The notes beneath the pieces were generated by a model. The model ran no database searches and was not told the DNA's origin. It saw nothing but the letters and a program-made list of their open reading frames with translations. This document shows positions 43,140 to 59,132 of a DNA stretch of 64,000 nt, piece after piece. The stretch's first letter is position 1. Each line of letters opens with the position of its first letter. The stretch is from Candidatus Zixiibacteriota bacterium. Lineage in GTDB: Bacteria; Zixibacteria; MSB-5A5; UM-FILTER-46-8. The stretch lies in the NCBI GenBank assembly GCA_026983835.1, contig JALSTH010000116.1, positions 16,362 to 80,361 on the forward strand. The letters run 5' to 3'. The position numbers and the translations under genes are program-made.

Positions 43140-46100
43140 TTAAAAATTATATTTAATCTCCGCCCTAACAAAATTACGGGGGCTCTCTCCGGAACGCTTG
43201 ATAAGATTATATGATATTTCCCCGAAACTATTTGCGCTGATTTTGAAAGTCCCTTTAGAAGTCAAACGATAATTGCTCCCCTTACGATTCCCCTCGGCGA
43301 TTCGATAGTTGAAATAATCCATTTTCGCAGAATGCGCATAAACATACTCTCCATTGAAATCCAAACGGCTCTTGTGGGTGGCATTCCATCTGAGATGAGG
43401 AGAGAGGGAATAAAGTTGAACCGAAAAATCGGTGATATGCTCCTTGTCATTGCGGAATTTCACCCCCATTCCGACCTCAGACGCACTTGTCGGCAAATGA
43501 GTAACATCGACGAGGATATCGAAAGAATCTATTCTCAATACCGATGTTCCGCTAACTACTCTATGTTCACGGGACAACTCGGTTTTCAAGGCGGTCGTCC
43601 TGCGAAGCGGATATTTAATCCTGATACCCCCCGAACGCAAATCATCAGCTTCGCCGATAAAAGTCCCTCCCGCAGAAACATTCACCTTTTGTCGATAACG
43701 GAACCGTATTTCCCGCCTGCGGTTTTTCAGCGATGGGAATAAATAAATATCCTGAACGAAACTTAATTGCTCATTAACAAGCGCCGATTTATCCGTCTTC
43801 CTCCAAGGGTTTATAATATCCAATAACCTTAAACCGCTTTCTTTGGTTTGTTGATTGGAGTCGATGGTTGTTTCCAATTTAATTTTATTAAAGGACGATT
43901 GAGATGTTTTCATCGAGCGCCCATCAAATCTAATATGGACGCTGTTGTCTATTTCCGAAACCGGCACATACTCCCCCGCATCCTCAACAATCCGCACATA
44001 ATCGCCGAACGGATCGGGGATATATTCCCCATTTTCATAACGGTATTCCCCCTTGCCTTCATCCACCTTTACATAATGTTCCACCTTCAGCGCGGATCTG
44101 GTGCGATTGTATTTGTGAATATAATCGATATCAAACGGACCGTTGTTATATGAACCTGTCAAATAGGACAGATGCTGGCGATTATCGGTCCCTGAGATTT
44201 CCTTATAAAACTTATGCCGAAAAACATATTCATAGTTCAGTTTCAACCCCTCGGGGATATCGGAAAAGGAAACATATTCCCTCAAGGTAATAGCATCATC
44301 GCGACGCATCCAACGAGTATCGAAAATATCGTCCCTCTGTAGGCTATAGCTTATCTTGTTGCTGATCCTCGAATAAGGCTTCACGGTTAAACCAGCCTCA
44401 TAGATATTGTATCTTTCGCCGTTTAATATCGAATATCCCTTATATCCCGCCTTATAGCGATATTTATACGAGAATGAAGGAATAACAACTTTTCCATCAA
44501 TTTCCAATTCGGAATAAGATTCGCTTAATTTGTTTATATCGCTCGTATCGGTCTGCGCCGCATCGGTTCCCGCAGAATATTCGGCATTATTTGTATCACC
44601 ACGATAATTAATATTGAACGGCAATTTCAATTCCGTTCCGGCCGACCACCTCTGAGAAAATCCCTGCGATGTCCTCGAAAGTCTTCCACCTTCAAATCGG
44701 AAATTATATTTAGAGAATAAATCGAATACCGCCTTGGCTTCCCCCATATCCTCGACGGCGGAGGTATAATCAATCGGCAGGTTCCATTTATTGTAATAAT
44801 CAGGCCCTCTGAATTCCGCAAACGGCTTGAAGTATTTCCCCGTATGCCTGAAATCACCCCCCAATGAAAAATCAAGCGGCGAATGAGAATCCTTTGATTT
44901 AGAGGTATATATACCCTTTAGGGTAATACCCGGATCATCATAAACCGCATCCCCACCCAAAAAGAGATTGCGATTATCGCGGCTATAGGCGGTCTCCATA
45001 CTAAATGATAGTTTCTCCGATGGATTAAACTTTCCATCAATCGAATACAAATAATGCGATTTTGGAATAGGAAGCCTGATAAGGGGAGCATATTCCCCTA
45101 ATCCGACACCTACGAATTTGTATATACCTCGACCTTCGTAAATATAATCCCCTTTACCCACACCCACATTGGAGAAGACGACTTTGTATTCGCCGGAATC
45201 CGGACCCACATAAGTATAGTAAATATATCCCGTCGAGTCGGAAAGACGGTTATATTCTCCATTGTCGGCTCCAACATCTTCCACCCCCGATTTATAAGCA
45301 TACTCGGAAGCGCCCGAGTTCTTTATCAATTCGATGTCATCGGGGGATAGTTCTACATTTAAGGGATTGCTTTTATCATCTGTCTCGCCGATGACAGTTG
45401 TCCCGAAGGAAATTTTATCACCGCCGATTTCTCGTTGTAATCTGGAGGAATAAAAATTACGCGAATAATCGATATCGGCATATTCGTACTCCACTTCTAT
45501 ACGGGAGTCCGAAGTAATTAGCCTTTTGGGAGTAAAAATGAGGTATGCGTTGGAATAATCAATGGTGTAATCGTTGTCCGAACCCCTCATTAACTTCTCT
45601 CCATCGATATAAACCCTTTCGGTACCGGGCAAAACGGAAATACCTCCGGAACCGGCGGCATCGGTTAGGAAATACGGGCCTTGATCGCCTTCTCTACCCT
45701 CGAATTTATCGATTGTAAATCTCCCCGAAGATGATGCTCCCGAAAACATCACCCGATTTATGTCATCGTCGTAGGCAACCGTAACCCCTTTCAACTTTTT
45801 GTTGTACTTCGCCAATTCCAAATCATCGAAATCTATATAAAAATCACCTAATGTAGCCGTAAGATTTTTTGTGGCGATGCTCACAAAGAATTTATCCAAT
45901 TCCTCGATCGTTCCGCTCGAACCACCGGAAGTCAACGGAGTTCCTTTGTCCGACACATAAGCGGTCGCCTCAACTCCGTTTGTAATCGCACCCCTAATCG
46001 ATAAGTCAAGCGATTGAGAAATATCGGGTGTTATCCCGTTCCCGAATTCGAAGGATAACGATTTACTGCCGCCTATTTTAAGCCCGGGTTGGATAAAAAC

Positions 46101-49136: not shown

Positions 49137-52100
49137 TTATCGAACAATTGCGATCTTTGTGAATTTATATTCGCTCTCACTTCCGTATTGCGCCTCCACA
49201 CGGGCGATATAAACACCCGAGGCGAAAGAGGAGCAATCCCAATCAAATTCATTATCAGACGGACCCCGTGCGGTAATATGATGCTCATCCATCAGATTAC
49301 CGGCCACATCAAAAATTCTAATACCGATTCGTGTCTCTCCTTCCTTACCTATTTTATATCTTATATGCGAAACAGCGCTATGAGTTGGATTGGGCCAGGC
49401 ATAAACCGATGATAATAATATCCCCGAAGGATTCTTTGGAGCCGATAATCCGCCGGGATGATAAAACCTATGCTCGGGACCGCGACCGTAAGTGGGCCAA
49501 ATATTCAAGGAATCCGCTGATTGTTTCTGGATATCCCAAATGTTGATATAACCATCATCCCCTCTCGCACCCAAATCGATATCGCCATCCCCGTCCAAAT
49601 CAGCTATGAAAGGAGAGGAATTTACCGGCATACCAACCGCCAATGGGAAATTATCGAGAGAGGTCCCATCTTTGGAAAATACATAGATATCCCGGTCCGT
49701 CCCCCCCATAATAATATCCGGATAACCATCCGCATCAATATCCCCAACCACGATGGGAGAATTTATTAAACCGACCGGTTCGTTTCCATTCAACTCAACG
49801 GGGAAATTTTCCAAACTTAATCCGTTATAGCTAAAACAATACACTTTGTTATTCCCGGGGACTATAACTTCCAGAAAACCATTTCTGTTAATATCAGCCA
49901 TAACTACATCAGCCCCCAAATAATCTCCGGTGCCGATAGGCCAGCCATTCAATTCTCCCCCATTTATCGAATAAGCCATTATCTCCCCCTCAAGGCTGGA
50001 GACGATAACATCATCAATTCCATCACCATCCAAATCGCCGACTGCAGGTTCATAAAATCGAACATCCGAAGCACCCCTTTTCCATACAAGTGAGTGTTGC
50101 TCCAAATTTATCGCTCCGACATAGGAGCTGTCATCGGAGGAATCGGCTGGATTGCAAGCGAAAACAATTTCTTCGATATTGGAACCGAGAGCCAACCCGG
50201 TCGGAACGCCGGGTATCGAATCGGTGCTGTCAATAAGCTCGCCTTTATAATTATATATTGAAATTACACCGTTTGCCGAAGCGATACAAATCTCATCAGT
50301 AGCCACATTATCATCGAAATTCGCAAGCAACGGCGTAGTGGCGGCGAGGGTATCCATTTCCACAGGAAAACCATCTAACATATCCGCCAATCCGTCATCG
50401 TCAGAATCCGTAATACTATAAGCATAGAGCTTTCCATCATCGGCTCCGATAACAACCTCCGCTATGCCATCGCCGTCAATGTCTCCAACGGACGGCGTTC
50501 CGATATAACTCGCCGTGTCGGCTAAAAGGGCGAATATTTTCAAGGGAACATCGATATAATCACCGTCGAATCCGAGCGTCCGCAAGGTGAAATCGTTATC
50601 TATTATCCCGGAACCGTCATAGTTGTATCCGGTAAGAATATAATCCTTCGCTTGGAATATCTCCATAGTTCCATCTCCATCGATATCGACCGGAACCGGG
50701 TGGGAGGCGACCTTACCCGGAACGGACATCAGGGGCCAACCGGACATTGTAATATCCCTTTTAACATCGAAGAACATCATTGTATCCGCAGCGGTTATAT
50801 TGGTGATGGAAATTCCCGTATATGCCCCGGAATTGGAAGCCGAAGAGAAAGGCAAAGTAAAGGGGGTGATGCTGTTTACCGCATCGGTCGGAAACAGGTC
50901 CAATGTGGAACCATAGCCCGCATGGTATGAATTTCCGAAATCCACCTCGTCATCGGCTTCAACCACCCTCATAAACCATCTTGTAGTATCGCATTGTAAG
51001 GTATTGGTGTACCAATTTCCCAAACCGCTACCGGTGTAATCCTGATAAGCGACGACCTCGTCGATATGGAAAACCAACAGACCGCCGAGTGTATCCGGCT
51101 CATCCCCTTCAGGCAACAATCTATCATATTCGCCGTTTACAACCTTCACCAAACTATCGCCTTGAATATAAGCATATCCGGGTCCCATCACCACGCTGGT
51201 TGTTTTGTCCAACAAAATGACATTCGGGTAATCTATCGAGGGGTTGAAAGCATCGAAATCGAACTCTCTCAACCTATCTTCGATCACAAAATATTCATAA
51301 TTGTCTATTGGCACCTTGACACATTTAACCCCATCTTTGGGCATTCCCGAGCCGATTATTTCGATGTCGGCGGTATCGTTTGCCACCAACGGATTCACAA
51401 ACCCCAAATAAGCTTTATGCCAAATATCGAGGGATGCCGGGAGCACCCCAAAAACCAACGGCAGCGGATCGCCAAAATCGACAGCAACATCGGCAAAGTT
51501 ATTGTCCATCAAGGAAAAATCCCCGACACGGGTCGTGAAACTACAGGTGGAATAAATATCTCTCGTACCCAAAATATGACCGAACTCATGTGCCATAACG
51601 GAATTCAACACTCGGACAGGCCATTCGATACCCGGTCGATCCTGAGTAACGGTCTCCGGCATAATTATTCCTTCGGATATAGTATGTGCGCCGTTATCGA
51701 CAGGAACCCCGTTTCCGGTTAGAAACATAAACCCGGTAGGCAAATCATACGGCGAATCGTAATTGACATCGTTTTGCCAATCCGAGCCCGGATGGAAAAT
51801 TATAATCGGTTTTAATCTCCCGTCCGGCTGGGCAAAATCGATATCGGGGGAAACCGAATCAGCCAAAGCAACCGCTTCGCTGAAATATCCACCCAAGACA
51901 TTTTGGAAGGAATAACCGTATTTTTCCCAATACTCGCGAAGAGTCAAAGGGAGATGATAAGTTGAATCATCACCGGGGGGCCAGATTTCATATTGTATCT
52001 GAAGCGTATGCCCGGACATTTCCCACCAATAATGCGCCATCGCCTTCATATGCTCGGAGAAGTATGCTTTATTATGGGGAGATGTATCGAAGAAATGCCC

Positions 52101-52484
52101 TTCCTCCTGATAAAATTGGAGGGTATCCCGCATATCGAACAAGCCGTTCCCGGTCGTGGAGTCATCATCAGGTATCTCCTCTTTAAATTCCACCCTCAAG
52201 CCAAGAGCTATCAGCGTATCTATCTGATGCACATCCAAAGGAAGTCCCTTTCGGGCGTAAGGCAAAGCTCCGGGCCTTTCCCTTTCGAGTTGTAATATAT
52301 TGCTATGGGAAACCTGCGGAGTGAAACTTTTCCGTTTCAAAACTTCCGCTTTTACCATTCGATTCTCATTCGGCGTAACGATCCTTTTAATTTTAAGAAT
52401 ATCCTTAGATGGTTCAGCCGACGCAATAGTTATAACTGCCGAAACAAGAAGTAAAACCATCAATGGTAATTTACGGCTATTCAA
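49137..52484 (-). CDS. M6-like (immune inhibitor A type) metalloprotease with FG-GAP/VCBS repeats and T9SS-type CTD
   Basis: Signal peptide; HEFGHILGTRD, FSLMD Met-turn, W.K.YLG, EYFVIE.R; multiple GD+DGDG..E repeats; YAWPNP...GVY...KIAIVR. Confidence 0.85.
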   Translation of the reverse strand: MNSRKLPLMVLLLVSAVITIASAEPSKDILKIKRIVTPNENRMVKAEVLKRKSFTPQVSHSNILQLERERPGALPYARKGLPLDVHQIDTLIALGLRVEFKEEIPDDDSTTGNGLFDMRDTLQFYQEEGHFFDTSPHNKAYFSEHMKAMAHYWWEMSGHTLQIQYEIWPPGDDSTYHLPLTLREYWEKYGYSFQNVLGGYFSEAVALADSVSPDIDFAQPDGRLKPIIIFHPGSDWQNDVNYDSPYDLPTGFMFLTGNGVPVDNGAHTISEGIIMPETVTQDRPGIEWPVRVLNSVMAHEFGHILGTRDIYSTCSFTTRVGDFSLMDNNFADVAVDFGDPLPLVFGVLPASLDIWHKAYLGFVNPLVANDTADIEIIGSGMPKDGVKCVKVPIDNYEYFVIEDRLREFDFDAFNPSIDYPNVILLDKTTSVVMGPGYAYIQGDSLVKVVNGEYDRLLPEGDEPDTLGGLLVFHIDEVVAYQDYTGSGLGNWYTNTLQCDTTRWFMRVVEADDEVDFGNSYHAGYGSTLDLFPTDAVNSITPFTLPFSSASNSGAYTGISITNITAADTMMFFDVKRDITMSGWPLMSVPGKVASHPVPVDIDGDGTMEIFQAKDYILTGYNYDGSGIIDNDFTLRTLGFDGDYIDVPLKIFALLADTASYIGTPSVGDIDGDGIAEVVIGADDGKLYAYSITDSDDDGLADMLDGFPVEMDTLAATTPLLANFDDNVATDEICIASANGVISIYNYKGELIDSTDSIPGVPTGLALGSNIEEIVFACNPADSSDDSSYVGAINLEQHSLVWKRGASDVRFYEPAVGDLDGDGIDDVIVSSLEGEIMAYSINGGELNGWPIGTGDYLGADVVMADINRNGFLEVIVPGNNKVYCFSYNGLSLENFPVELNGNEPVGLINSPIVVGDIDADGYPDIIMGGTDRDIYVFSKDGTSLDNFPLAVGMPVNSSPFIADLDGDGDIDLGARGDDGYINIWDIQKQSADSLNIWPTYGRGPEHRFYHPGGLSAPKNPSGILLSSVYAWPNPTHSAVSHIRYKIGKEGETRIGIRIFDVAGNLMDEHHITARGPSDNEFDWDCSSFASGVYIARVEAQYGSESEYKFTKIAIVR

Positions 52485-52500
52485 GATAAAACTCCTTTAA

Positions 52501-55110
52501 TTAAAATCTAGCTGTCATCGAGAATCTCATTGTGTTGGCTAAGCGGTTCTTATCACCAAAAGCGCTTGGAATATAAGAGAAATCGAAACGATAATTGGTG
52601 TATTGCAACCCGGCGCCGAGGGTGTAATATCTCTGGTCCCCTTCCTTATCGTTGACGAAACCCGCACGGAGCGCGAGGAATGTTCCATACCAATATTCAG
52701 CTCCTATATGGGCAATCACCTGTTCCAACCTTTCGGCTATCTTATTCTTCAAACCTTCCCGCTTGAAATCGGTCAAGCCTATGAGCAATTTGGAACCTTC
52801 ACCGATCAGGGTTAGCTTGTTGTAAGGATTTTTAAAAATATCATAAGCCAAACTCAAAGTCAAATTCCTTGGCAGCGGGTCCGCCTGAGCCGCATCAATA
52901 TAGGAAATGTCGGGACCTATATTGGTGATGCTCAATCCCATCTTCAATTTCCTGACGGGCGTATTCCAAAGCATTCCACCATCGACCGCAAATGATGATG
53001 CCGTCCCACTGCCCCTTTCCTGTCCCGCTCCCACATCCGACAGATGGGAATGGATATACTTGGCACTCATCCCCAATGACAGTTTATCACTAACTCTTGT
53101 GCCATAACTGATCGCCAACGCCATTTCGTAGGAAAAGAAGGTTCCCAAATCCTCTCCCTGTTCGCCTGTTCTCTGTTGAGAACCGTATGAAAGGAAAGTT
53201 ATTGCTCCACCCATTGTCCCCACACCTTCTATGTGCTGAACATAGGAGAGATATTCGAAATAGATATCATTGGCAAGTTCCACCAACCAATTACTGTGCA
53301 TAAAAGACATTTCGCGCTTAGCGTGAGCCGCCACCACCAACTCATCGGGAGTAGCCAACCATACCTCTCCATCCTTCTCCACAAGACTCACAACCCCTTT
53401 CTCATCGAGATTTGCGTGCGTATATCTCTTCCAATTATTACCGGAACCTATAAATGTACCGTAATTTGTCCCAACGATTACTTTATTACTTCCATTACCC
53501 CCCACGGCCAAAATCTCAGTAGCCAACGGCGATGACGGAATATAAAGAATCTCCCCGGCATTTATAGGGGAACTTTCCAAATTATTAAAAGAAGTAATTC
53601 CAACAGCCAATTGCTGCACCTTTTTATCGGTAGCCGCCTTGCCCAATAGATTGCGGGCGATACTTTCCGGTGTATCCCCTTGCTTTGCCGAATATTCCTT
53701 GAAACCATAGTAACTCCACGCTTTCCCATCGAAACCGGCCAATCCATCGGTCGTCGCAACCCAAAGGTTATCATTACTGTCGATGTAAATCGATTTAATA
53801 TCGCCCTTGATAACTGCGGTATAGGGGATTTTGATTTTTGTTCCCTTTTCGGGAACGGAATCACCAAATGCGTTGTAATCGCTAACTATCTTCACCGCCT
53901 CATCCAAAGCGGGACCGGGCTTCAGGTGGATATATTTACAGACTGCTTTTTGTAAATCTTCCCCTACATTCAAAGTATAGTTGGCGTAGGAAAGAAAAGA
54001 TCCTCCCTGATATTTGGCTAAACCGCTATCCGTAATCACCCAAATATCATTCCTTTTACCCACTTCGATATCCAAAATTCTGTTGCTCGGAAGGCCATTT
54101 TCGGTGGTGTAAGAAATCCATTTTCTTCCGTTGTATTTGGAAATGCCCTCGCTCGTGCCTATCCATACGGTCCGCATTTTCGCAAAAGCGACATCGGTCA
54201 CATCATTGGATATCAGCGAATCGGCCGTCGAATACGATACCCAGCGTTTCCCGTTGTATTTATATAATCCGGTAGGTGTTCCAACCCATAAATCCTTGGC
54301 ATCCGAGGTTAAAGTCGTCAATGTGTCGGGCAACACGAAATCATAAGGAACATCGATTTTTTCCGGCAACCTTACTTTAACCGCCCCGTTTATCGCAAAG
54401 GTCAGTTTATCCAACTCATCGGCGGTAAGAGAATCATCTTGCAGAGCCTTATCGGTCATCCCTACCAGCTTGTCGAATTTCACAGGATCAAGAGTAAGTT
54501 CCGCCCAAGCGTTAACAAGGGTTTCCAATGAATATTTTATGTCGTCGATATAAGCATAATCCGCGGGGATATTAGCTTTTATCCTATTCGATAAGCCATA
54601 CACTTCCGATTTATCCATTTTATTATTGGCAACCGCTAATTTGTCCCTCAATACCTTGATGCTATCGTCATTATCGACTCCGGAGAAACGCCTGACAATA
54701 TCCTCCGCATTCTCCCCCGGAAAAGGATAATACATCTCCCCATAAACCCATTTTTCCCCATTGAAGCGCGCCAATTTATTGCCCAACAATCCCCAAGTAT
54801 CATACTTACGGTAGTTGTTATCAGGCATACCATTATCCATAATCGCTATCTGCCCGATTTTTGATTTGGTATTATTGGGATACTCAAACCACGCCGGCGA
54901 CAATGGATAACGCCCCAATCCTGCGGGATTCCAATAGGTGGCATTTGCATCATCAGCAATGGATGTAAAAGCATCACCCATCCCCGAAGCCCTTGCGCCA
55001 GGGGGCAAAAGCAAAAAGATAACACCCGCTTGACTTACTTGAGCTACGGTGTCAACCGCTATCGAAGAAACCATCAGCAGAGCCAAAAAGGTGATTAGTA
55101 TTAGTTTCAT
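52501..55110 (-). CDS. porV: PorV-family outer-membrane barrel with large inserted beta-propeller/LysM-like region
   Basis: N-terminal FL...PGARASGMGDA....ADDA.A.YWNPAGL; barrel resumes at SFMHSNWLVELANDIY with K.IHS.L, G.SITNIGP.ISY, DPLP, G.EYWY, LRAG, terminal F. Confidence 0.85.
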   Translation of the reverse strand: MKLILITFLALLMVSSIAVDTVAQVSQAGVIFLLLPPGARASGMGDAFTSIADDANATYWNPAGLGRYPLSPAWFEYPNNTKSKIGQIAIMDNGMPDNNYRKYDTWGLLGNKLARFNGEKWVYGEMYYPFPGENAEDIVRRFSGVDNDDSIKVLRDKLAVANNKMDKSEVYGLSNRIKANIPADYAYIDDIKYSLETLVNAWAELTLDPVKFDKLVGMTDKALQDDSLTADELDKLTFAINGAVKVRLPEKIDVPYDFVLPDTLTTLTSDAKDLWVGTPTGLYKYNGKRWVSYSTADSLISNDVTDVAFAKMRTVWIGTSEGISKYNGRKWISYTTENGLPSNRILDIEVGKRNDIWVITDSGLAKYQGGSFLSYANYTLNVGEDLQKAVCKYIHLKPGPALDEAVKIVSDYNAFGDSVPEKGTKIKIPYTAVIKGDIKSIYIDSNDNLWVATTDGLAGFDGKAWSYYGFKEYSAKQGDTPESIARNLLGKAATDKKVQQLAVGITSFNNLESSPINAGEILYIPSSPLATEILAVGGNGSNKVIVGTNYGTFIGSGNNWKRYTHANLDEKGVVSLVEKDGEVWLATPDELVVAAHAKREMSFMHSNWLVELANDIYFEYLSYVQHIEGVGTMGGAITFLSYGSQQRTGEQGEDLGTFFSYEMALAISYGTRVSDKLSLGMSAKYIHSHLSDVGAGQERGSGTASSFAVDGGMLWNTPVRKLKMGLSITNIGPDISYIDAAQADPLPRNLTLSLAYDIFKNPYNKLTLIGEGSKLLIGLTDFKREGLKNKIAERLEQVIAHIGAEYWYGTFLALRAGFVNDKEGDQRYYTLGAGLQYTNYRFDFSYIPSAFGDKNRLANTMRFSMTARF

Positions 55111-55187: not shown

Positions 55188-58100
55188 CTATTTTAATTTC
55201 AATGCTTTTTGGACACTCTCCGCCTTACCTCCCGGTCCATCGACAATAACCTTGTAAATATACACCCCGTTTGCCACCTCATCATTATCGTCATCCCTGC
55301 CATTCCATTCGACGAAGTTGTATGAATTTTCGGTCGGACAGTTTTTTATTGTCCTTATTTTCAGACCCGATAAAGTAAATATCAGTATCTCCGCTTTTCT
55401 GACATCGCTTCTGTTAACCAGATATTGAATCACCGTCTTCGACCTGAACGGATTTGGGTAATTCATTACTTCCGCCAATTCGGTTGCGCCTTGTTCCACT
55501 ACTTCTATGTTGAACATCACCCTAGCGGAATTATTATTATTGTCCCACACCTTAAACTCAACTGAATGCCCTCCTTTCTCCAAACCGCTGACGGGATACT
55601 CCAACGATCCGGTTTGATAACTGTTGACATCATACTCGAATTTATCACTCAAATTCGCATCTAAACTTTCCCCTCCATCGATTCTCAAAGAAATATAATG
55701 ACCCGCCTGCCCGGTCATATTTATTCCGCTGGAATCGGCAATGACTGCGGAAAAAGTGAAATCGGAGCCTATGGTCATAAAGTTTCCCTTCAACTCCGAG
55801 TCGTTAAGGTATATCGTTATATCCGGACCGGTCGAGTCATCGGGGGCCCCAACAGCTCTTCCCAAATAAAGGGAATCATAATAACCGGCACCATTTATCC
55901 CCGTATCCTCATCCAAAACGAAGACCAAAATTTTACCGGTCTGTTTACCGTAATCAATGTCTTTCGGCATCAGGAATTTCGAGGCGAACAATCCATCGGA
56001 TACCTCTACAGGACCACGGAAAACGGTATTCCCAGCATGCTTGTATGTAAAACTTGTGCCGTAGGGTATCAATTGCACTGCATCGTGAGCGGTAATATAA
56101 GCTACTCCGTTAAAATCGGTGGCTACGGAACTATCACCATAAGTGACTTCGCCGTCTATCGTCACCAATCCCAATGCATTCAGCGTATCTTCAGCCGAAT
56201 CCGTTGCAACCGAAGTTATATCTACATTCAATATAGGGGCGGCAATCCTAAGCTCCGCATCTCCGAAGGATTCATACCGCAAATCGTTGCTACTCGAATG
56301 CCTTAAGAGTTTAGCCACATAAAACGCTTCGGCGACGGAAAACGAATCCGAGTAGAGCAACTCATCGAAAAATTTATTATTCAGGGCTTCATTCGAGGAG
56401 GCATAAACTCCCCGAGTAGCAGCAATAACGAAAATCGCCCCCCCAGCGGAGTTTGCCCTCAAAAAATCTTCCGCCATTCCCTCTTCGGTAGGGTCATCGA
56501 AAAACCCGATACTGCAGGAGGCTCCGAATACCAAAGGTAATCTTTTTAGATTGGTAAGCCGCGGAATATCCTCATCCCTTTTGAAAGTATGTTCATGCAT
56601 CCAGACATTCTTATTACCATGACCGATATAATCTATGATTAAAGAACCATCGTTAAAGGCGGAAAGTATCGCTTGATTAACCAATGGTTTTGTTCTGCCC
56701 TCTTCCATAGGGTAATCCACCGCGTAAATTTTATTTATCTCATAAGAAGGAGGAATATGCCCATTGGCAAGGTCTTCGGCTTGGCTGGTATGATACCATT
56801 CATCATCGTAATCATCCTTGCCGTATTGGTCATCGGCAACGATAGAAATCCTATTCTCCCACTCCCCAGGATCCAAATCCGCATCGTAAGTGGTAATCTT
56901 ATTGAGGACATTTTCCAATTGCTGGTTTGATTTAACGGAAATCCTCGATATGTACATATCAGGGAATCCGGAATCGTCACTATCAAAATCCCCGTAAGCC
57001 CCAAAGAAAACATAATTGTCATCGGAAGCCCAAGCATCAAAACTCCCGCCGGGCGTAGCCTCGAATGGAGGGATATAAGAGGGAATACCCAATCCCATAT
57101 TATCTAAATAATCGTAATGGCCATCCCCTATCAGGGTGCAGGATGACGGCTTCGGCGTGCTCCAGTTCTCAAAAGCATATCGGAGGAAATAACGAATCGC
57201 CAACGGATCGGACCTCCCCCAACCAAATTCATTATAAACATCCGTAATATTTGCGACATAATAATTCAAACCATTGAGCGACTGTCTGTGCTGAGCCAAG
57301 GCTTCCGCCTGTTCTCTGAAACCATCATAAGTTATTATAATCGCATCGGCTGAATTCATCACACCCCTTAACCCCGCGGGGATATACGATTCCAATGATG
57401 AAACACTCAGATACCCAGCCGAATTGGTATAATAAAAACTCGTCACCAGTCCATCCGACGAATATTGAAATCTCCATGCACCATTTCCACCCTCACCACC
57501 TTCCAACCTTTTAGGCTGCAATGGATTCGTAATATCCAAAAGAATTTCATTCGGGTCGGAATTACTCAATTGGAAGATATATGAACCCGGCTGCTTCGAG
57601 CCCCTGAAATGCAAAGAATTTCCATCGACTGAAAGATAACGGTTATACTCAATTTCGAAGTAGTTAAAAGATACCTTACCAGCATAAGAAAACTCGAAAG
57701 AATTCAACCCATCCTGCAGATTAAGGGCATATAAAGTGCTTAAATACGATACACGGGAGGCAAAAACAGCATCGGTTCCGTTTAATTTTAAGGAGGCGGC
57801 GGCATTTGTCGGCAAATCGGAGTATGAATAAGTATAAATCCAAGCGGTATCCCCCATTACAACATCATAAAACGGATTATCATTAAAAAAAGTGAACCCA
57901 TCCCCCTCCTCCCAATACCACTCGAAATAATCCCCTATTCCACCATCGCTTTTTGTCCGTAGCAGATTGTTATGCTCCACCCGAACGAAATCCCTAAAAG
58001 TGGACACGGATGGCAACCCGGGATTGCTTATGTCGGCATTGGTTATCTCCCACCTTTGCGGCTGATGTTGAAATTGGGTGTTCCCAAAGGTTAGGAAAAA

Positions 58101-59132
58101 ATAATTGTTTTTCTCATAATGATTATAATGATAGGCATATTTACCCGAAGTGCTGTCATAATCGAACCCGTTCACCGGCGGGGCATAGAAAAGAATAAAG
58201 TCATTGGAATCAAAGCTCCCGTCTTCCTCACCGTTTATATAAATCGGCACCTCGGTCAACATCGGATATACCTCGCTGTTATCGGTGGGAAGCTCCTTGG
58301 AGGGCGAACCGAAGATCCTTATCGTTCTCGGATCCAAACCGGCAAGATCAACACCGGAATTCAACAAAACATAATAAGTCAGCTTATAAACTCCTTCATC
58401 CGAAGTATTAAATTTAAACCAAACCGATGAGGAATCGAAAGGTGAACCGGAAATCATCGAGAATTGGGATGACTGTTTATAGTGCCACATTTTCGATTGC
58501 TCATAATTAATCAATAGACTTTTCAGAATCCGTTTGGCAAAACGGTCCTCCGCGACCTTCTTAATCCCTATTTCATTTTTTACATTAAAGTCTATGGTGA
58601 TATCTATGGATTGATAAGCAACCGCTAATTTATCGGAAGGATTATATCGAGCTGTCAAAACGGTCAATTTCAAAACCCTCAAATCGCGGATATAGCTTAC
58701 TTCCTGCGAAACCAGAGGATTAGCAGGTAAAAATCCCGCGGGAGTGTTATAACTCCCCGATTGCGGAAGTGGTTTTAATGATTTGAATACCTTTGCTCCC
58801 GGATTCCCAATGACTGAGACAATCGGTTTACTGTTAGGTGGTAAGGCTATATAAAAATTCTTTGCCGGAAGCGAAGGATATCCGGGTTGATTTATGGTAT
58901 AGCCATCTTCAGCCTGCAAGACGCTATAATTCCCATCTTCGGAATCAATATCCCGGGCGGTGATATCTCCCGGACGATATTGAAATCTCACCCCATTATC
59001 ATCCTTCTCGTAGAAAGCGATATTACCCTTATTAGGGTATATTGGCTTCGTCCCGATAGCTGATCTCGCGAAAGAGGAATTTAAGGGGGCTATAACAAGG
59101 AGAATTATAAAAAACAAAAATATCCGTCGCAT
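55188..59132 (-). CDS. porU: Type IX secretion sortase PorU (peptidase C25 family)
   Basis: Signal peptide, GVYKL, G.EDGSFD..D.ILFY, IGDG.YD, SDD, VADD, catalytic YIGHG and ASC, SGIN..G..GH, NYPNPF CTD; adjacent to porV. Confidence 0.92.
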   Translation of the reverse strand: MRRIFLFFIILLVIAPLNSSFARSAIGTKPIYPNKGNIAFYEKDDNGVRFQYRPGDITARDIDSEDGNYSVLQAEDGYTINQPGYPSLPAKNFYIALPPNSKPIVSVIGNPGAKVFKSLKPLPQSGSYNTPAGFLPANPLVSQEVSYIRDLRVLKLTVLTARYNPSDKLAVAYQSIDITIDFNVKNEIGIKKVAEDRFAKRILKSLLINYEQSKMWHYKQSSQFSMISGSPFDSSSVWFKFNTSDEGVYKLTYYVLLNSGVDLAGLDPRTIRIFGSPSKELPTDNSEVYPMLTEVPIYINGEEDGSFDSNDFILFYAPPVNGFDYDSTSGKYAYHYNHYEKNNYFFLTFGNTQFQHQPQRWEITNADISNPGLPSVSTFRDFVRVEHNNLLRTKSDGGIGDYFEWYWEEGDGFTFFNDNPFYDVVMGDTAWIYTYSYSDLPTNAAASLKLNGTDAVFASRVSYLSTLYALNLQDGLNSFEFSYAGKVSFNYFEIEYNRYLSVDGNSLHFRGSKQPGSYIFQLSNSDPNEILLDITNPLQPKRLEGGEGGNGAWRFQYSSDGLVTSFYYTNSAGYLSVSSLESYIPAGLRGVMNSADAIIITYDGFREQAEALAQHRQSLNGLNYYVANITDVYNEFGWGRSDPLAIRYFLRYAFENWSTPKPSSCTLIGDGHYDYLDNMGLGIPSYIPPFEATPGGSFDAWASDDNYVFFGAYGDFDSDDSGFPDMYISRISVKSNQQLENVLNKITTYDADLDPGEWENRISIVADDQYGKDDYDDEWYHTSQAEDLANGHIPPSYEINKIYAVDYPMEEGRTKPLVNQAILSAFNDGSLIIDYIGHGNKNVWMHEHTFKRDEDIPRLTNLKRLPLVFGASCSIGFFDDPTEEGMAEDFLRANSAGGAIFVIAATRGVYASSNEALNNKFFDELLYSDSFSVAEAFYVAKLLRHSSSNDLRYESFGDAELRIAAPILNVDITSVATDSAEDTLNALGLVTIDGEVTYGDSSVATDFNGVAYITAHDAVQLIPYGTSFTYKHAGNTVFRGPVEVSDGLFASKFLMPKDIDYGKQTGKILVFVLDEDTGINGAGYYDSLYLGRAVGAPDDSTGPDITIYLNDSELKGNFMTIGSDFTFSAVIADSSGINMTGQAGHYISLRIDGGESLDANLSDKFEYDVNSYQTGSLEYPVSGLEKGGHSVEFKVWDNNNNSARVMFNIEVVEQGATELAEVMNYPNPFRSKTVIQYLVNRSDVRKAEILIFTLSGLKIRTIKNCPTENSYNFVEWNGRDDDNDEVANGVYIYKVIVDGPGGKAESVQKALKLK

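Follow-up and report, generated by a model that had tools for sequence, protein, structure and literature searches.

A PorV orthologue of Zixibacteria with a beta-propeller and LysM-type units inserted between hatch and barrel

PorV is central to current type IX secretion system (T9SS) models, in which it is treated as an outer-membrane carrier that works with the sortase PorU. A preliminary description of a 64,000-nucleotide stretch from a Candidatus Zixiibacteriota bacterium (contig JALSTH010000116.1; the whole stretch is referred to below as the window) proposed that the PorV gene at 52501..55110, on the minus strand, carries an insertion of approximately 530 amino acids (aa), made of a beta-propeller and LysM-like units, directly after the NPA hatch. 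This locus raises the question of whether a protein interrupted in this way is still PorV, on which side of the outer membrane the added module lies, and what it might do there. The proposed architecture was borne out by a split match to the family model NF033709 and by phmmer, AlphaFold2 and VIA-align comparisons. We favor, at a probability of roughly 0.55, the interpretation that this is a genuine PorV with a periplasmic propeller-LysM module that would hold PorV and PorU to peptidoglycan.

The 869-aa product is predicted to be a genuine PorV, that is, the outer-membrane carrier and PorU partner of a SprA-PorU-PorV system. It scored 259.4 bits with the PorV/PorQ family model NF033709 (cut-off 90), in a match split into two pieces of which the best covered residues 595-868 and profile positions 42-325, and 92.3 bits with PF19572 (cut-off 27). 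Its score with the PorV equivalog model NF033710 was 200.9 bits, below the cut-off of 250, and was divided among three stretches because the insert splits the match; with 116.8, 62.1 and 31.5 bits in one frame, the gene was the top NF033710 match of its genome, where no other locus exceeded 62.9 bits. Alignment by phmmer to PorV of Flavobacterium johnsoniae (6h3i_F) paired query residues 2-64 with chain residues 2-64, 599-777 with 72-258, and 791-869 with 315-395. An AlphaFold2 model based on a 61-sequence alignment (predicted local distance difference test, pLDDT, 88.0; predicted template-modelling score 0.82) contained a disordered leader, a short segment leading to WNPAGLG, a beta-rich region at residues 73-597, and 14 long strands at residues 600-868 that end with Phe869. 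In VIA-align comparisons the barrel and N-terminal segment matched the PorV chains 8gl6_F (Z 35.8; 310 residues aligned; root-mean-square deviation 3.5) and 6h3i_F (Z 35.0), and also FadL, TodX and TbuX (Z 26-29), in an alignment that began at FadL residue 3 and included the hatch. Residues N61, P62, A63, G64, L65 and G66 were invariant in all 61 homologues; the FadL family conserves NPA as its hatch motif, which plugs the lumen in FadL-type barrels (PMC8407342). The model, the structural comparisons and the conservation of NPAGLG thus agree on a FadL-like barrel of 14 strands preceded by an NPA hatch at the N-terminus.

The protein resembles Bacteroidota PorV (LptO; F. johnsoniae structures 6h3i and 8gl6) in this hatch and barrel, with 28-32% identity in the barrel and Z scores of 35-36, as well as in the adjoining porU gene and the presence of SprA in the genome. 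It differs from Bacteroidota PorV in carrying a module of approximately 530 residues, composed of propeller, LysM-type units and a helical bundle, where the latter has a 7-residue linker, in its equivalog score, in the absence of a counterpart of F. johnsoniae PorV residues 259-314, and in belonging to a phylum in which neither GldK nor GldM was found in the genomes searched. The segment without counterpart corresponds to query residues 777-791 (~52777-52820), and the strand 9-10 loop has only ~23 residues in the model and contains a short helix.

The possibility that the gene is an assembly chimera or a gene-call artefact was rejected. The reading frame is unbroken, and G+C content and skews were smooth over its whole length, with no composition break at either insert junction. 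When the insert alone was searched in the phylum, it matched at E <= 1e-10 in 151 of 151 independent assemblies (88 genera, 19 families), and among the matches listed nearly all lay in open frames of ~790-1170 aa without an internal stop, several of them in single-contig genomes. A continuous frame was likewise found in all 60 long-form loci of named public records. The search for the same architecture in related genomes that the preliminary description called for therefore turned out in its favor. A homologue search that scored 8000 candidates yielded 603 proteins with E <= 1e-3. Most of the top 120 were 850-950 aa long, and where a name was given, nearly all were annotated as 'PorV/PorQ family protein' from candidate division Zixibacteria. 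We also considered a split form, with the insert encoded as a separate gene beside a short PorV, and found no stand-alone insert homologue within 6 kb of the canonical-size PorV gene in 18 of 19 loci; one canonical-size locus (L107) had a weak, 94-residue Reg_prop-like match (E 9e-5).

The insert lies between the end of the hatch (residue 66, ending at 54913) and the start of barrel strand 1 (residue 600, ~53311), within a few bases of the junctions first proposed (~54912 and ~53320), and all of the sequence motifs that had been quoted for it are present in the translation. In the phmmer alignment it takes the place of F. johnsoniae PorV residues 65-71, which form the 7-residue linker between hatch and strand 1. 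Most of the insert was modelled with pLDDT >90. Both a repeat match and a fold identify a Reg_prop propeller within it: Reg_prop (PF07494) scored a significant 44.5 bits (cut-off 20.4; E 6.7e-12), and VIA-align placed model residues 73..597 on 7-bladed propellers of the RACK1 and G-beta type (Z ~24; 254-272 residues aligned). The propeller is interrupted after blades 1, 4 and 5 by three extra elements. Its closest sequence relatives among solved structures were periplasmic sensors of hybrid two-component systems (HTCS; phmmer against 4a2l, E 9e-15, and 3v9f, E 5e-12), and Foldseek likewise matched the propeller to HTCS sensor domains (E 1e-11 to 6e-10) and to PorZ (5m11, E 6e-7). The PorZ model NF052228 matched residues 297-370 only (23 bits; E 2.3e-5; cut-off 260). 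PorZ and the HTCS sensors BT4663, BT4673 and BT3049 share Reg_prop-type repeats with the insert (phmmer E 9e-15 to 8e-7) but have two propellers and no LysM, in contrast to the single, 7-bladed, LysM-interrupted propeller found here. PorZ is, in addition, a surface protein with a C-terminal sorting domain (CTD), and the 869-aa protein, with one propeller and no CTD, is not a PorZ.

The topology of the barrel suggests on which side of the outer membrane this module lies. In the model, barrel connections 2-3, 4-5, 6-7, 8-9, 10-11 and 12-13 consist of 3-6 residues, and those that alternate with them are loops of up to 23. Strand 1 follows 5 residues after the final strand of the propeller (590-595). 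Because strand 1 adjoins the propeller and the N-terminal junction follows the hatch, the two ends of the insert are both expected at the periplasmic mouth, and because the 14 strands, the aromatic C-terminus, and the alternation of short turns with long loops follow the usual periplasmic and extracellular pattern, the insert is very probably periplasmic and situated immediately beneath the barrel. The preliminary description had argued for the same side from FadL topology, and the strand and loop pattern of the AlphaFold2 model supports it. The opposite placement, with the insert outside the cell as a surface lectin or PorZ-like module, can appeal to the likeness of its propeller to that of the surface protein PorZ and to the ability of LysM domains to bind chitin and other external polymers of N-acetylglucosamine (GlcNAc), which is generally known and appears in the titles of several of the structure matches. 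However, both junctions are at the periplasmic end of the 14-strand barrel, and an extracellular insert would therefore need two extra crossings of the membrane or lumen. We regard a surface module as highly improbable, and an artefactual gene, considered along with it, is excluded by the unbroken frames and the smooth composition described above.

A scan of named species genomes located the long form in many Zixibacteria or Zixiibacteriota records, some of them automatically labelled Ignavibacteria. A form of ~806-833 aa occurred in 'bacterium' records that include UBP14_UBA6098 (the ~810-aa, UBP14-like clade), and forms of 764-819 aa occurred in one Fibrobacter sp., two Chitinispirillaceae records, and one Bacteroidia-labelled contig of 2.4 kb. 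The shorter insert-bearing form of the UBP14-like clade and Fibrobacterota has the same propeller. In the canonical PorVs (349-387 aa) of KSB1, Latescibacterota, Calditrichaeota and others, NPAGL runs straight into strand 1. The ESM Atlas had given a lead to an 803-aa Reg_prop and PorV cluster in which Fibrobacterota was the commonest of 57 members of known phylum, at a score of 0.76 that is below the reliable level; the named Fibrobacter and Chitinispirillaceae records confirmed this lead independently. The Bacteroidia-labelled contig (L103; 2447 bases) carries a Fibrobacterota-type long PorV in a bin (G152) that has GldK and GldM, and reflects either contamination of the bin or a true occurrence of the insert in Bacteroidota.

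Up to three LysM-like units had been proposed within the insert, and we count three LysM-type units. Units A and B were both beta-alpha-alpha-beta in the AlphaFold2 model, and unit B retained this arrangement when folded alone (pLDDT 82.2). Foldseek searches with isolated unit B returned LysM/CBM50 wherever the title of the entry names a domain, together with a few phage or injection-system baseplate entries whose titles are silent on this point. NCBIfam YneA matched the 869-aa protein at E 2.2e-4. A precomputed Pfam LysM match was present in 17 of the best 120 homologues, and all of ten homologues that were rescanned, nine of which had been picked because they were already LysM-flagged, exceeded the Pfam LysM cut-off at the position of unit A or unit B (best E 8.9e-12). 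Matches over the cut-off were found at the unit A position in P0007 (E 7.2e-11) and at the unit B position in P0029 (E 3e-9).

A LysM profile of the family, constructed from 38 units (A and B from 19 genomes), matched LytE (E 8.2e-12), the LysM domain of Thermus thermophilus NlpC/P60 (4uz2; E 1e-8), 4xcm (E 1.2e-6) and Ecp6 (E 5.8e-5) in the PDB, and the other 33 PDB rows that it matched were mostly LysM proteins. The sole invariant column of its alignment, with Asn in 38 of 38 units, is the Asn of the N-x-L motif, which is the hallmark LysM Asn; unit A of the present protein scored 57 bits with this profile. The first unit is counted as LysM-type because its counterpart in the ~810-aa clade, which is contiguous there and free of the four-helix insertion, is homologous to units A and B: hhalign comparison of a profile of 13 such first units with the A/B profile gave a probability of 98.2% (E 4.3e-14). 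The evidence that the units are LysM is firm for the family and weak in this protein alone. The domain checks that the preliminary description had proposed were thus upheld for Reg_prop in the protein itself, but for LysM they held at the level of the family and not in the query.

In forms of ~1050 aa (L026:1498-3633, L036:916-3066 and L035:1498-3249) a second copy of the first unit and its helical bundle was present at the start of the insert, and L035 had an additional LysM-like unit there. The module has thus grown by the copying of units in some lineages.

LysM ties other outer-membrane machines to peptidoglycan, as in intimin/invasin and in the secretin-associated protein TsaP, but in those proteins it is terminal, single, and outside any propeller, and their barrel families are unrelated to PorV. 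We infer that the LysM-type units described here probably bind peptidoglycan. According to the mechanism that we propose, the linker between hatch and strand 1 is replaced by the ~530-residue module, which should lie beneath the barrel, and the rigid 7-bladed propeller would present the three LysM-type units from equivalent inter-blade connections. Most probably the module would hold the glycan strands of peptidoglycan multivalently, by which PorV, and the surface PorU bound to it, would be fixed in position relative to the cell wall. One polypeptide might in this way do the job of separate periplasmic scaffolds of Bacteroidota, where a PorP barrel is combined with the lipoprotein PorE and its propeller and OmpA_C domain.

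PorE is described as a periplasmic lipoprotein of ~78 kDa (10.1101/2020.05.13.094771) that combines a WD40 propeller with an OmpA_C domain that binds peptidoglycan, and complexes with the PorP barrel (PMC7192894, PMC12773672, 10.1101/2020.05.13.094771). The PorE (PG1058)-PorP pair of Porphyromonas gingivalis is therefore similar to the long PorV in placing a periplasmic beta-propeller and a peptidoglycan-binding domain at a FadL-like T9SS barrel. It differs from it in that the propeller found here is of the Reg_prop type, the candidate for wall binding is LysM, and all of these parts are in one polypeptide within PorV. No sequence relationship connects PorE with the insert, and the resemblance is one of analogy, not homology; TPR, CarboxypepD_reg and OmpA domains had no match in the 869-aa protein, which consequently is not a PorE.

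The T9SS components encoded elsewhere bear on how such a PorV would be used. SprA was present in the genome of origin (94.7% complete) at 699.8 bits, and all 41 phylum genomes searched had it over the cut-off. In the genome of origin no GldK was found, and none of the 41 had it over the cut-off; ten of them had weak matches of sulfatase-modifying domains to the GldK model (<=64 bits). GldM was sought with GldM_1st (PF12081), as TIGR03517 matched nothing, controls included, and was uninformative; GldM_1st was not found in the genome of origin or in three near-complete relatives (G001, G020 and G037), one of which is a single contig. As a positive control, the Bacteroidia-labelled genome G152 had GldK at 573 bits and GldM_1st at 168 bits. 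From these profile matches the phylum seems to have the translocon, carrier and sortase of a T9SS, and no ring or motor turned up among the genomes examined for them (by GldK and GldM; GldL and GldN were outside the search).

No PorE-like protein was found among the four OmpA_C loci of the genome of origin. Two that were domain-scanned were an OmpA-type barrel with TSP3 repeats and MotB, and the other two frames (234 and 190 aa; not domain-scanned) are too short for a PorE of the size given above. A PD40 protein near an OmpA_C locus runs off the locus and has no OmpA domain in the part seen.

Several observations weigh against the wall-anchoring interpretation. Pfam LysM (PF01476) scored only 12.4 bits in the query, below the threshold of 20.9 (E 0.16; residues 473-525), and all units have an insertion of ~9 residues between their two helices as compared with solved LysM domains. 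Foldseek E-values for isolated unit B were weak (best 0.023, TM ~0.6; no row <=0.001). LysM domains bind GlcNAc polymers other than peptidoglycan, for example chitin, and both the membrane side and the face on which the module bears the LysM-type units are read from topology, not from model coordinates. Among ten proteins of the ~810-aa clade and divergent forms, in which PorV and Reg_prop were detected, none had Pfam LysM at E <= 0.01, and none of six Fibrobacterota and other forms had it at E <= 0.05. In the UBP14-like clade the family LysM profile still detected three units, weakly (in a small search space that makes the E-values generous), but in Fibrobacterota forms it matched just its first ~45 positions, once, which corresponds to the first half of the first unit. 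Since LysM is faint or undetected in the short-insert forms, the propeller, and not LysM, is the most widely kept part of the module. Finally, GldK was also over the cut-off in none of three short-PorV genomes, whose completeness is not known (G151, Cytophagia-labelled; G154, KSB1; and G155, Latescibacterota), and lack of the PorK/N ring is therefore not in itself enough to explain the insert. The idea that the insert compensates for a missing PorK/N ring was weakened by this result.

These observations lead to an alternative in which the module serves chiefly for docking or sensing, as a platform whose propeller binds a partner and whose LysM units are accessory or degenerate. The partner might be cargo not yet translocated or its CTD, a chaperone, the periplasmic face of SprA, or a glycan or lipid-linked anchor on its way to PorU, in the manner of the PorZ propellers with anionic lipopolysaccharide (A-LPS). 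The propeller is common to all long forms, including those of Fibrobacterota and the ~810-aa clade without Pfam LysM, and its closest solved relatives are the ligand-binding periplasmic sensors of Bacteroides hybrid two-component systems, with PorZ as a further relative in the Foldseek and NF052228 matches given above. PorZ delivers A-LPS to PorU (PMC8545088). However, three LysM-type units with their invariant Asn have been kept across all 151 phylum genomes, no partner was identified, and PorZ acts on the cell surface, while the module is periplasmic by topology. A separate PorZ-like gene also appears to exist in the genome, though its matches are below threshold and cut by contig ends. For these reasons we consider the docking or sensing platform possible but doubtful.

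The sub-threshold PorZ matches are at C47:33710-34693 (model 409-757) and, at a contig start, at C48:21-1220 (model 7-398), and appear to be a single PorZ-like gene that the contig ends interrupt.

It had also been argued that a PorV fixed to the wall is hard to reconcile with a freely diffusing shuttle. The tension is real, but it is smaller than claimed: recent work on P. gingivalis (PMC12365241) already has the attachment complexes sitting on the PorKN ring in the periplasm and argues for direct hand-over instead of free diffusion. The conflict is softened further by the seven canonical-size PorV/PorQ paralogues of the genome, which could serve as mobile carriers. Eight loci of this genome exceeded the PorV/PorQ cut-off, comprising six frames of 312-338 aa, one 640-aa frame, and the insert-bearing gene; the seven further loci (L002-L008) lie on contigs C9, C57, C30, C90, C25 and C47, and two of them adjoin on C30.

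A division of labor might follow, in which the insert-bearing PorV is the fixed, wall-anchored PorU seat of the attachment complex and the canonical-size paralogues are the mobile carriers; this version is compatible with anchoring of PorV by its module and assigns the shuttle role elsewhere. It draws on the seven further loci over the cut-off and on the precedent of F. johnsoniae, in which specialized carrier proteins serve different CTD types (PMC12618676). The paralogues, however, score far lower with the PorV equivalog (at most 62.9 bits in the best stretch), and the insert leaves untouched the extracellular loops that are involved in PorV contacts at the SprA lateral gate (PMC10994853), so that the long PorV could itself still dock on SprA. 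We consider this division of labor quite improbable.

A further proposal extends the anchoring of PorV by its module. Zixibacteria, and in reduced form Fibrobacterota and the UBP14-like clade, might use a T9SS without the GldLM/PorLM motor and PorKN ring, in which PorV is wall-anchored and stationary and not a carrier drawn away from SprA, the module acts as a stator or organizer that positions SprA-PorV-PorU on the sacculus, and cargo is handed to the sortase in place. Such a motor-independent T9SS variant seems unlikely on present evidence. In F. johnsoniae, it is the removal of the PorV-substrate complex from SprA that requires energy (PMC10994853), and a wall-bound PorV in a motor-less lineage is therefore the truly interesting possibility. 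If PorV is indeed anchored to peptidoglycan by the module, type IX export would be organized or driven differently in at least one branch of the Fibrobacteres-Chlorobi-Bacteroidetes (FCB) superphylum, and the long PorV would be a natural experiment on the need for carrier mobility.

The preliminary description knew of no account of this architecture, and among the PMC papers and preprints listed by the searches none described an insert-bearing PorV in its title or abstract, a scope that leaves subscription journals and supplementary tables outside. No paper joining Zixibacteria with type IX secretion or T9SS was found in the same collections; supplementary files, which were outside the search, may hold taxonomic T9SS surveys that bear on novelty. 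The sequences themselves are already public under the generic label 'PorV/PorQ family protein'. What we describe seems to be a known T9SS component into which a domain was inserted long ago, in a form shared by the whole phylum and so far undescribed. Annotators can recognize it by its signature, NPAGLG-YPL and, after it, a Reg_prop propeller that bears LysM units.

Table 1. Coordinates, in the window, of the insert-bearing PorV gene, its parts, and the adjoining genes
Feature	Coordinates	Strand	Basis or elements
Whole gene: 869-aa PorV orthologue with internal insert	52501..55110	(-)	Open reading frame, stop codon included
Hydrophobic N-terminal leader, residues 1 to ~24, presumed Sec signal peptide	55039..55110	(-)	By-eye reading of translation
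FadL-type hatch (plug), residues 27-66, ends WNPAGLG	54913..55032	(-)	Aligns with F. johnsoniae PorV 2-64 and FadL
Inserted module, residues 67-594: 7-bladed Reg_prop beta-propeller, three LysM-type units, helical bundle	53329..54912	(-)	
First LysM-type unit, residues 121-258, split between alpha2 and beta2	54337..54750	(-)	E124-127, H135-143, H148-162, E252-255
Four-helix insertion within first LysM-type unit, residues ~165-245	54376..54618	(-)	Helices 167-179, 188-203, 209-225, 230-242
LysM unit A, residues 372-432, between blades 4 and 5	53815..53997	(-)	E375-379, H386-394, H400-413, E425-429
LysM unit B, residues 468-530, between blades 5 and 6	53521..53709	(-)	E470-474, H481-489, H495-509, E521-525
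14-stranded PorV barrel, residues 599-869, Phe at end	52504..53316	(-)	Model strands; F. johnsoniae PorV alignment; FadL Z 26-29
PorU sortase, 1314 aa, next gene upstream, same orientation	55188..59132	(-)	NF033707, Peptidase_C25
M6-like metalloprotease, 1115 aa, next gene downstream	49137..52484	(-)	FG-GAP repeats; T9SS C-terminal sorting domain

Residues 14-28, which overlap the end of the presumed signal peptide, had pLDDT <50 in the AlphaFold2 model. The upstream gene scored 692.9 bits with NF033707 (cut-off 420; E 6.7e-208) and matched Peptidase_C25 at E 4.3e-80. Among 79 related loci from several FCB phyla, 49 had PorU upstream of the PorV homologue, although in many of the 79 the upstream DNA is too short for a judgement, and most had an M6-like homologue downstream. 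The gene order PorU, PorV, M6-like protein is widely conserved, and the downstream protein is likely a T9SS cargo and conserved neighbor of PorV. Elsewhere in the window, a weak match to the SprA model (22.7 bits; E 1.1e-5) was located at ~45393-45650 (-) (G000:C116:61754-62011), within an open frame of 1121 aa. The best NCBIfam match of the M6-like protein was 'T9SS-dependent M6-like inactivated metalloprotease' (298.6 bits; cut-off 600). Its translation retains an intact HEFGH motif, and the protein may be active as a protease despite the 'inactivated' of the family name.

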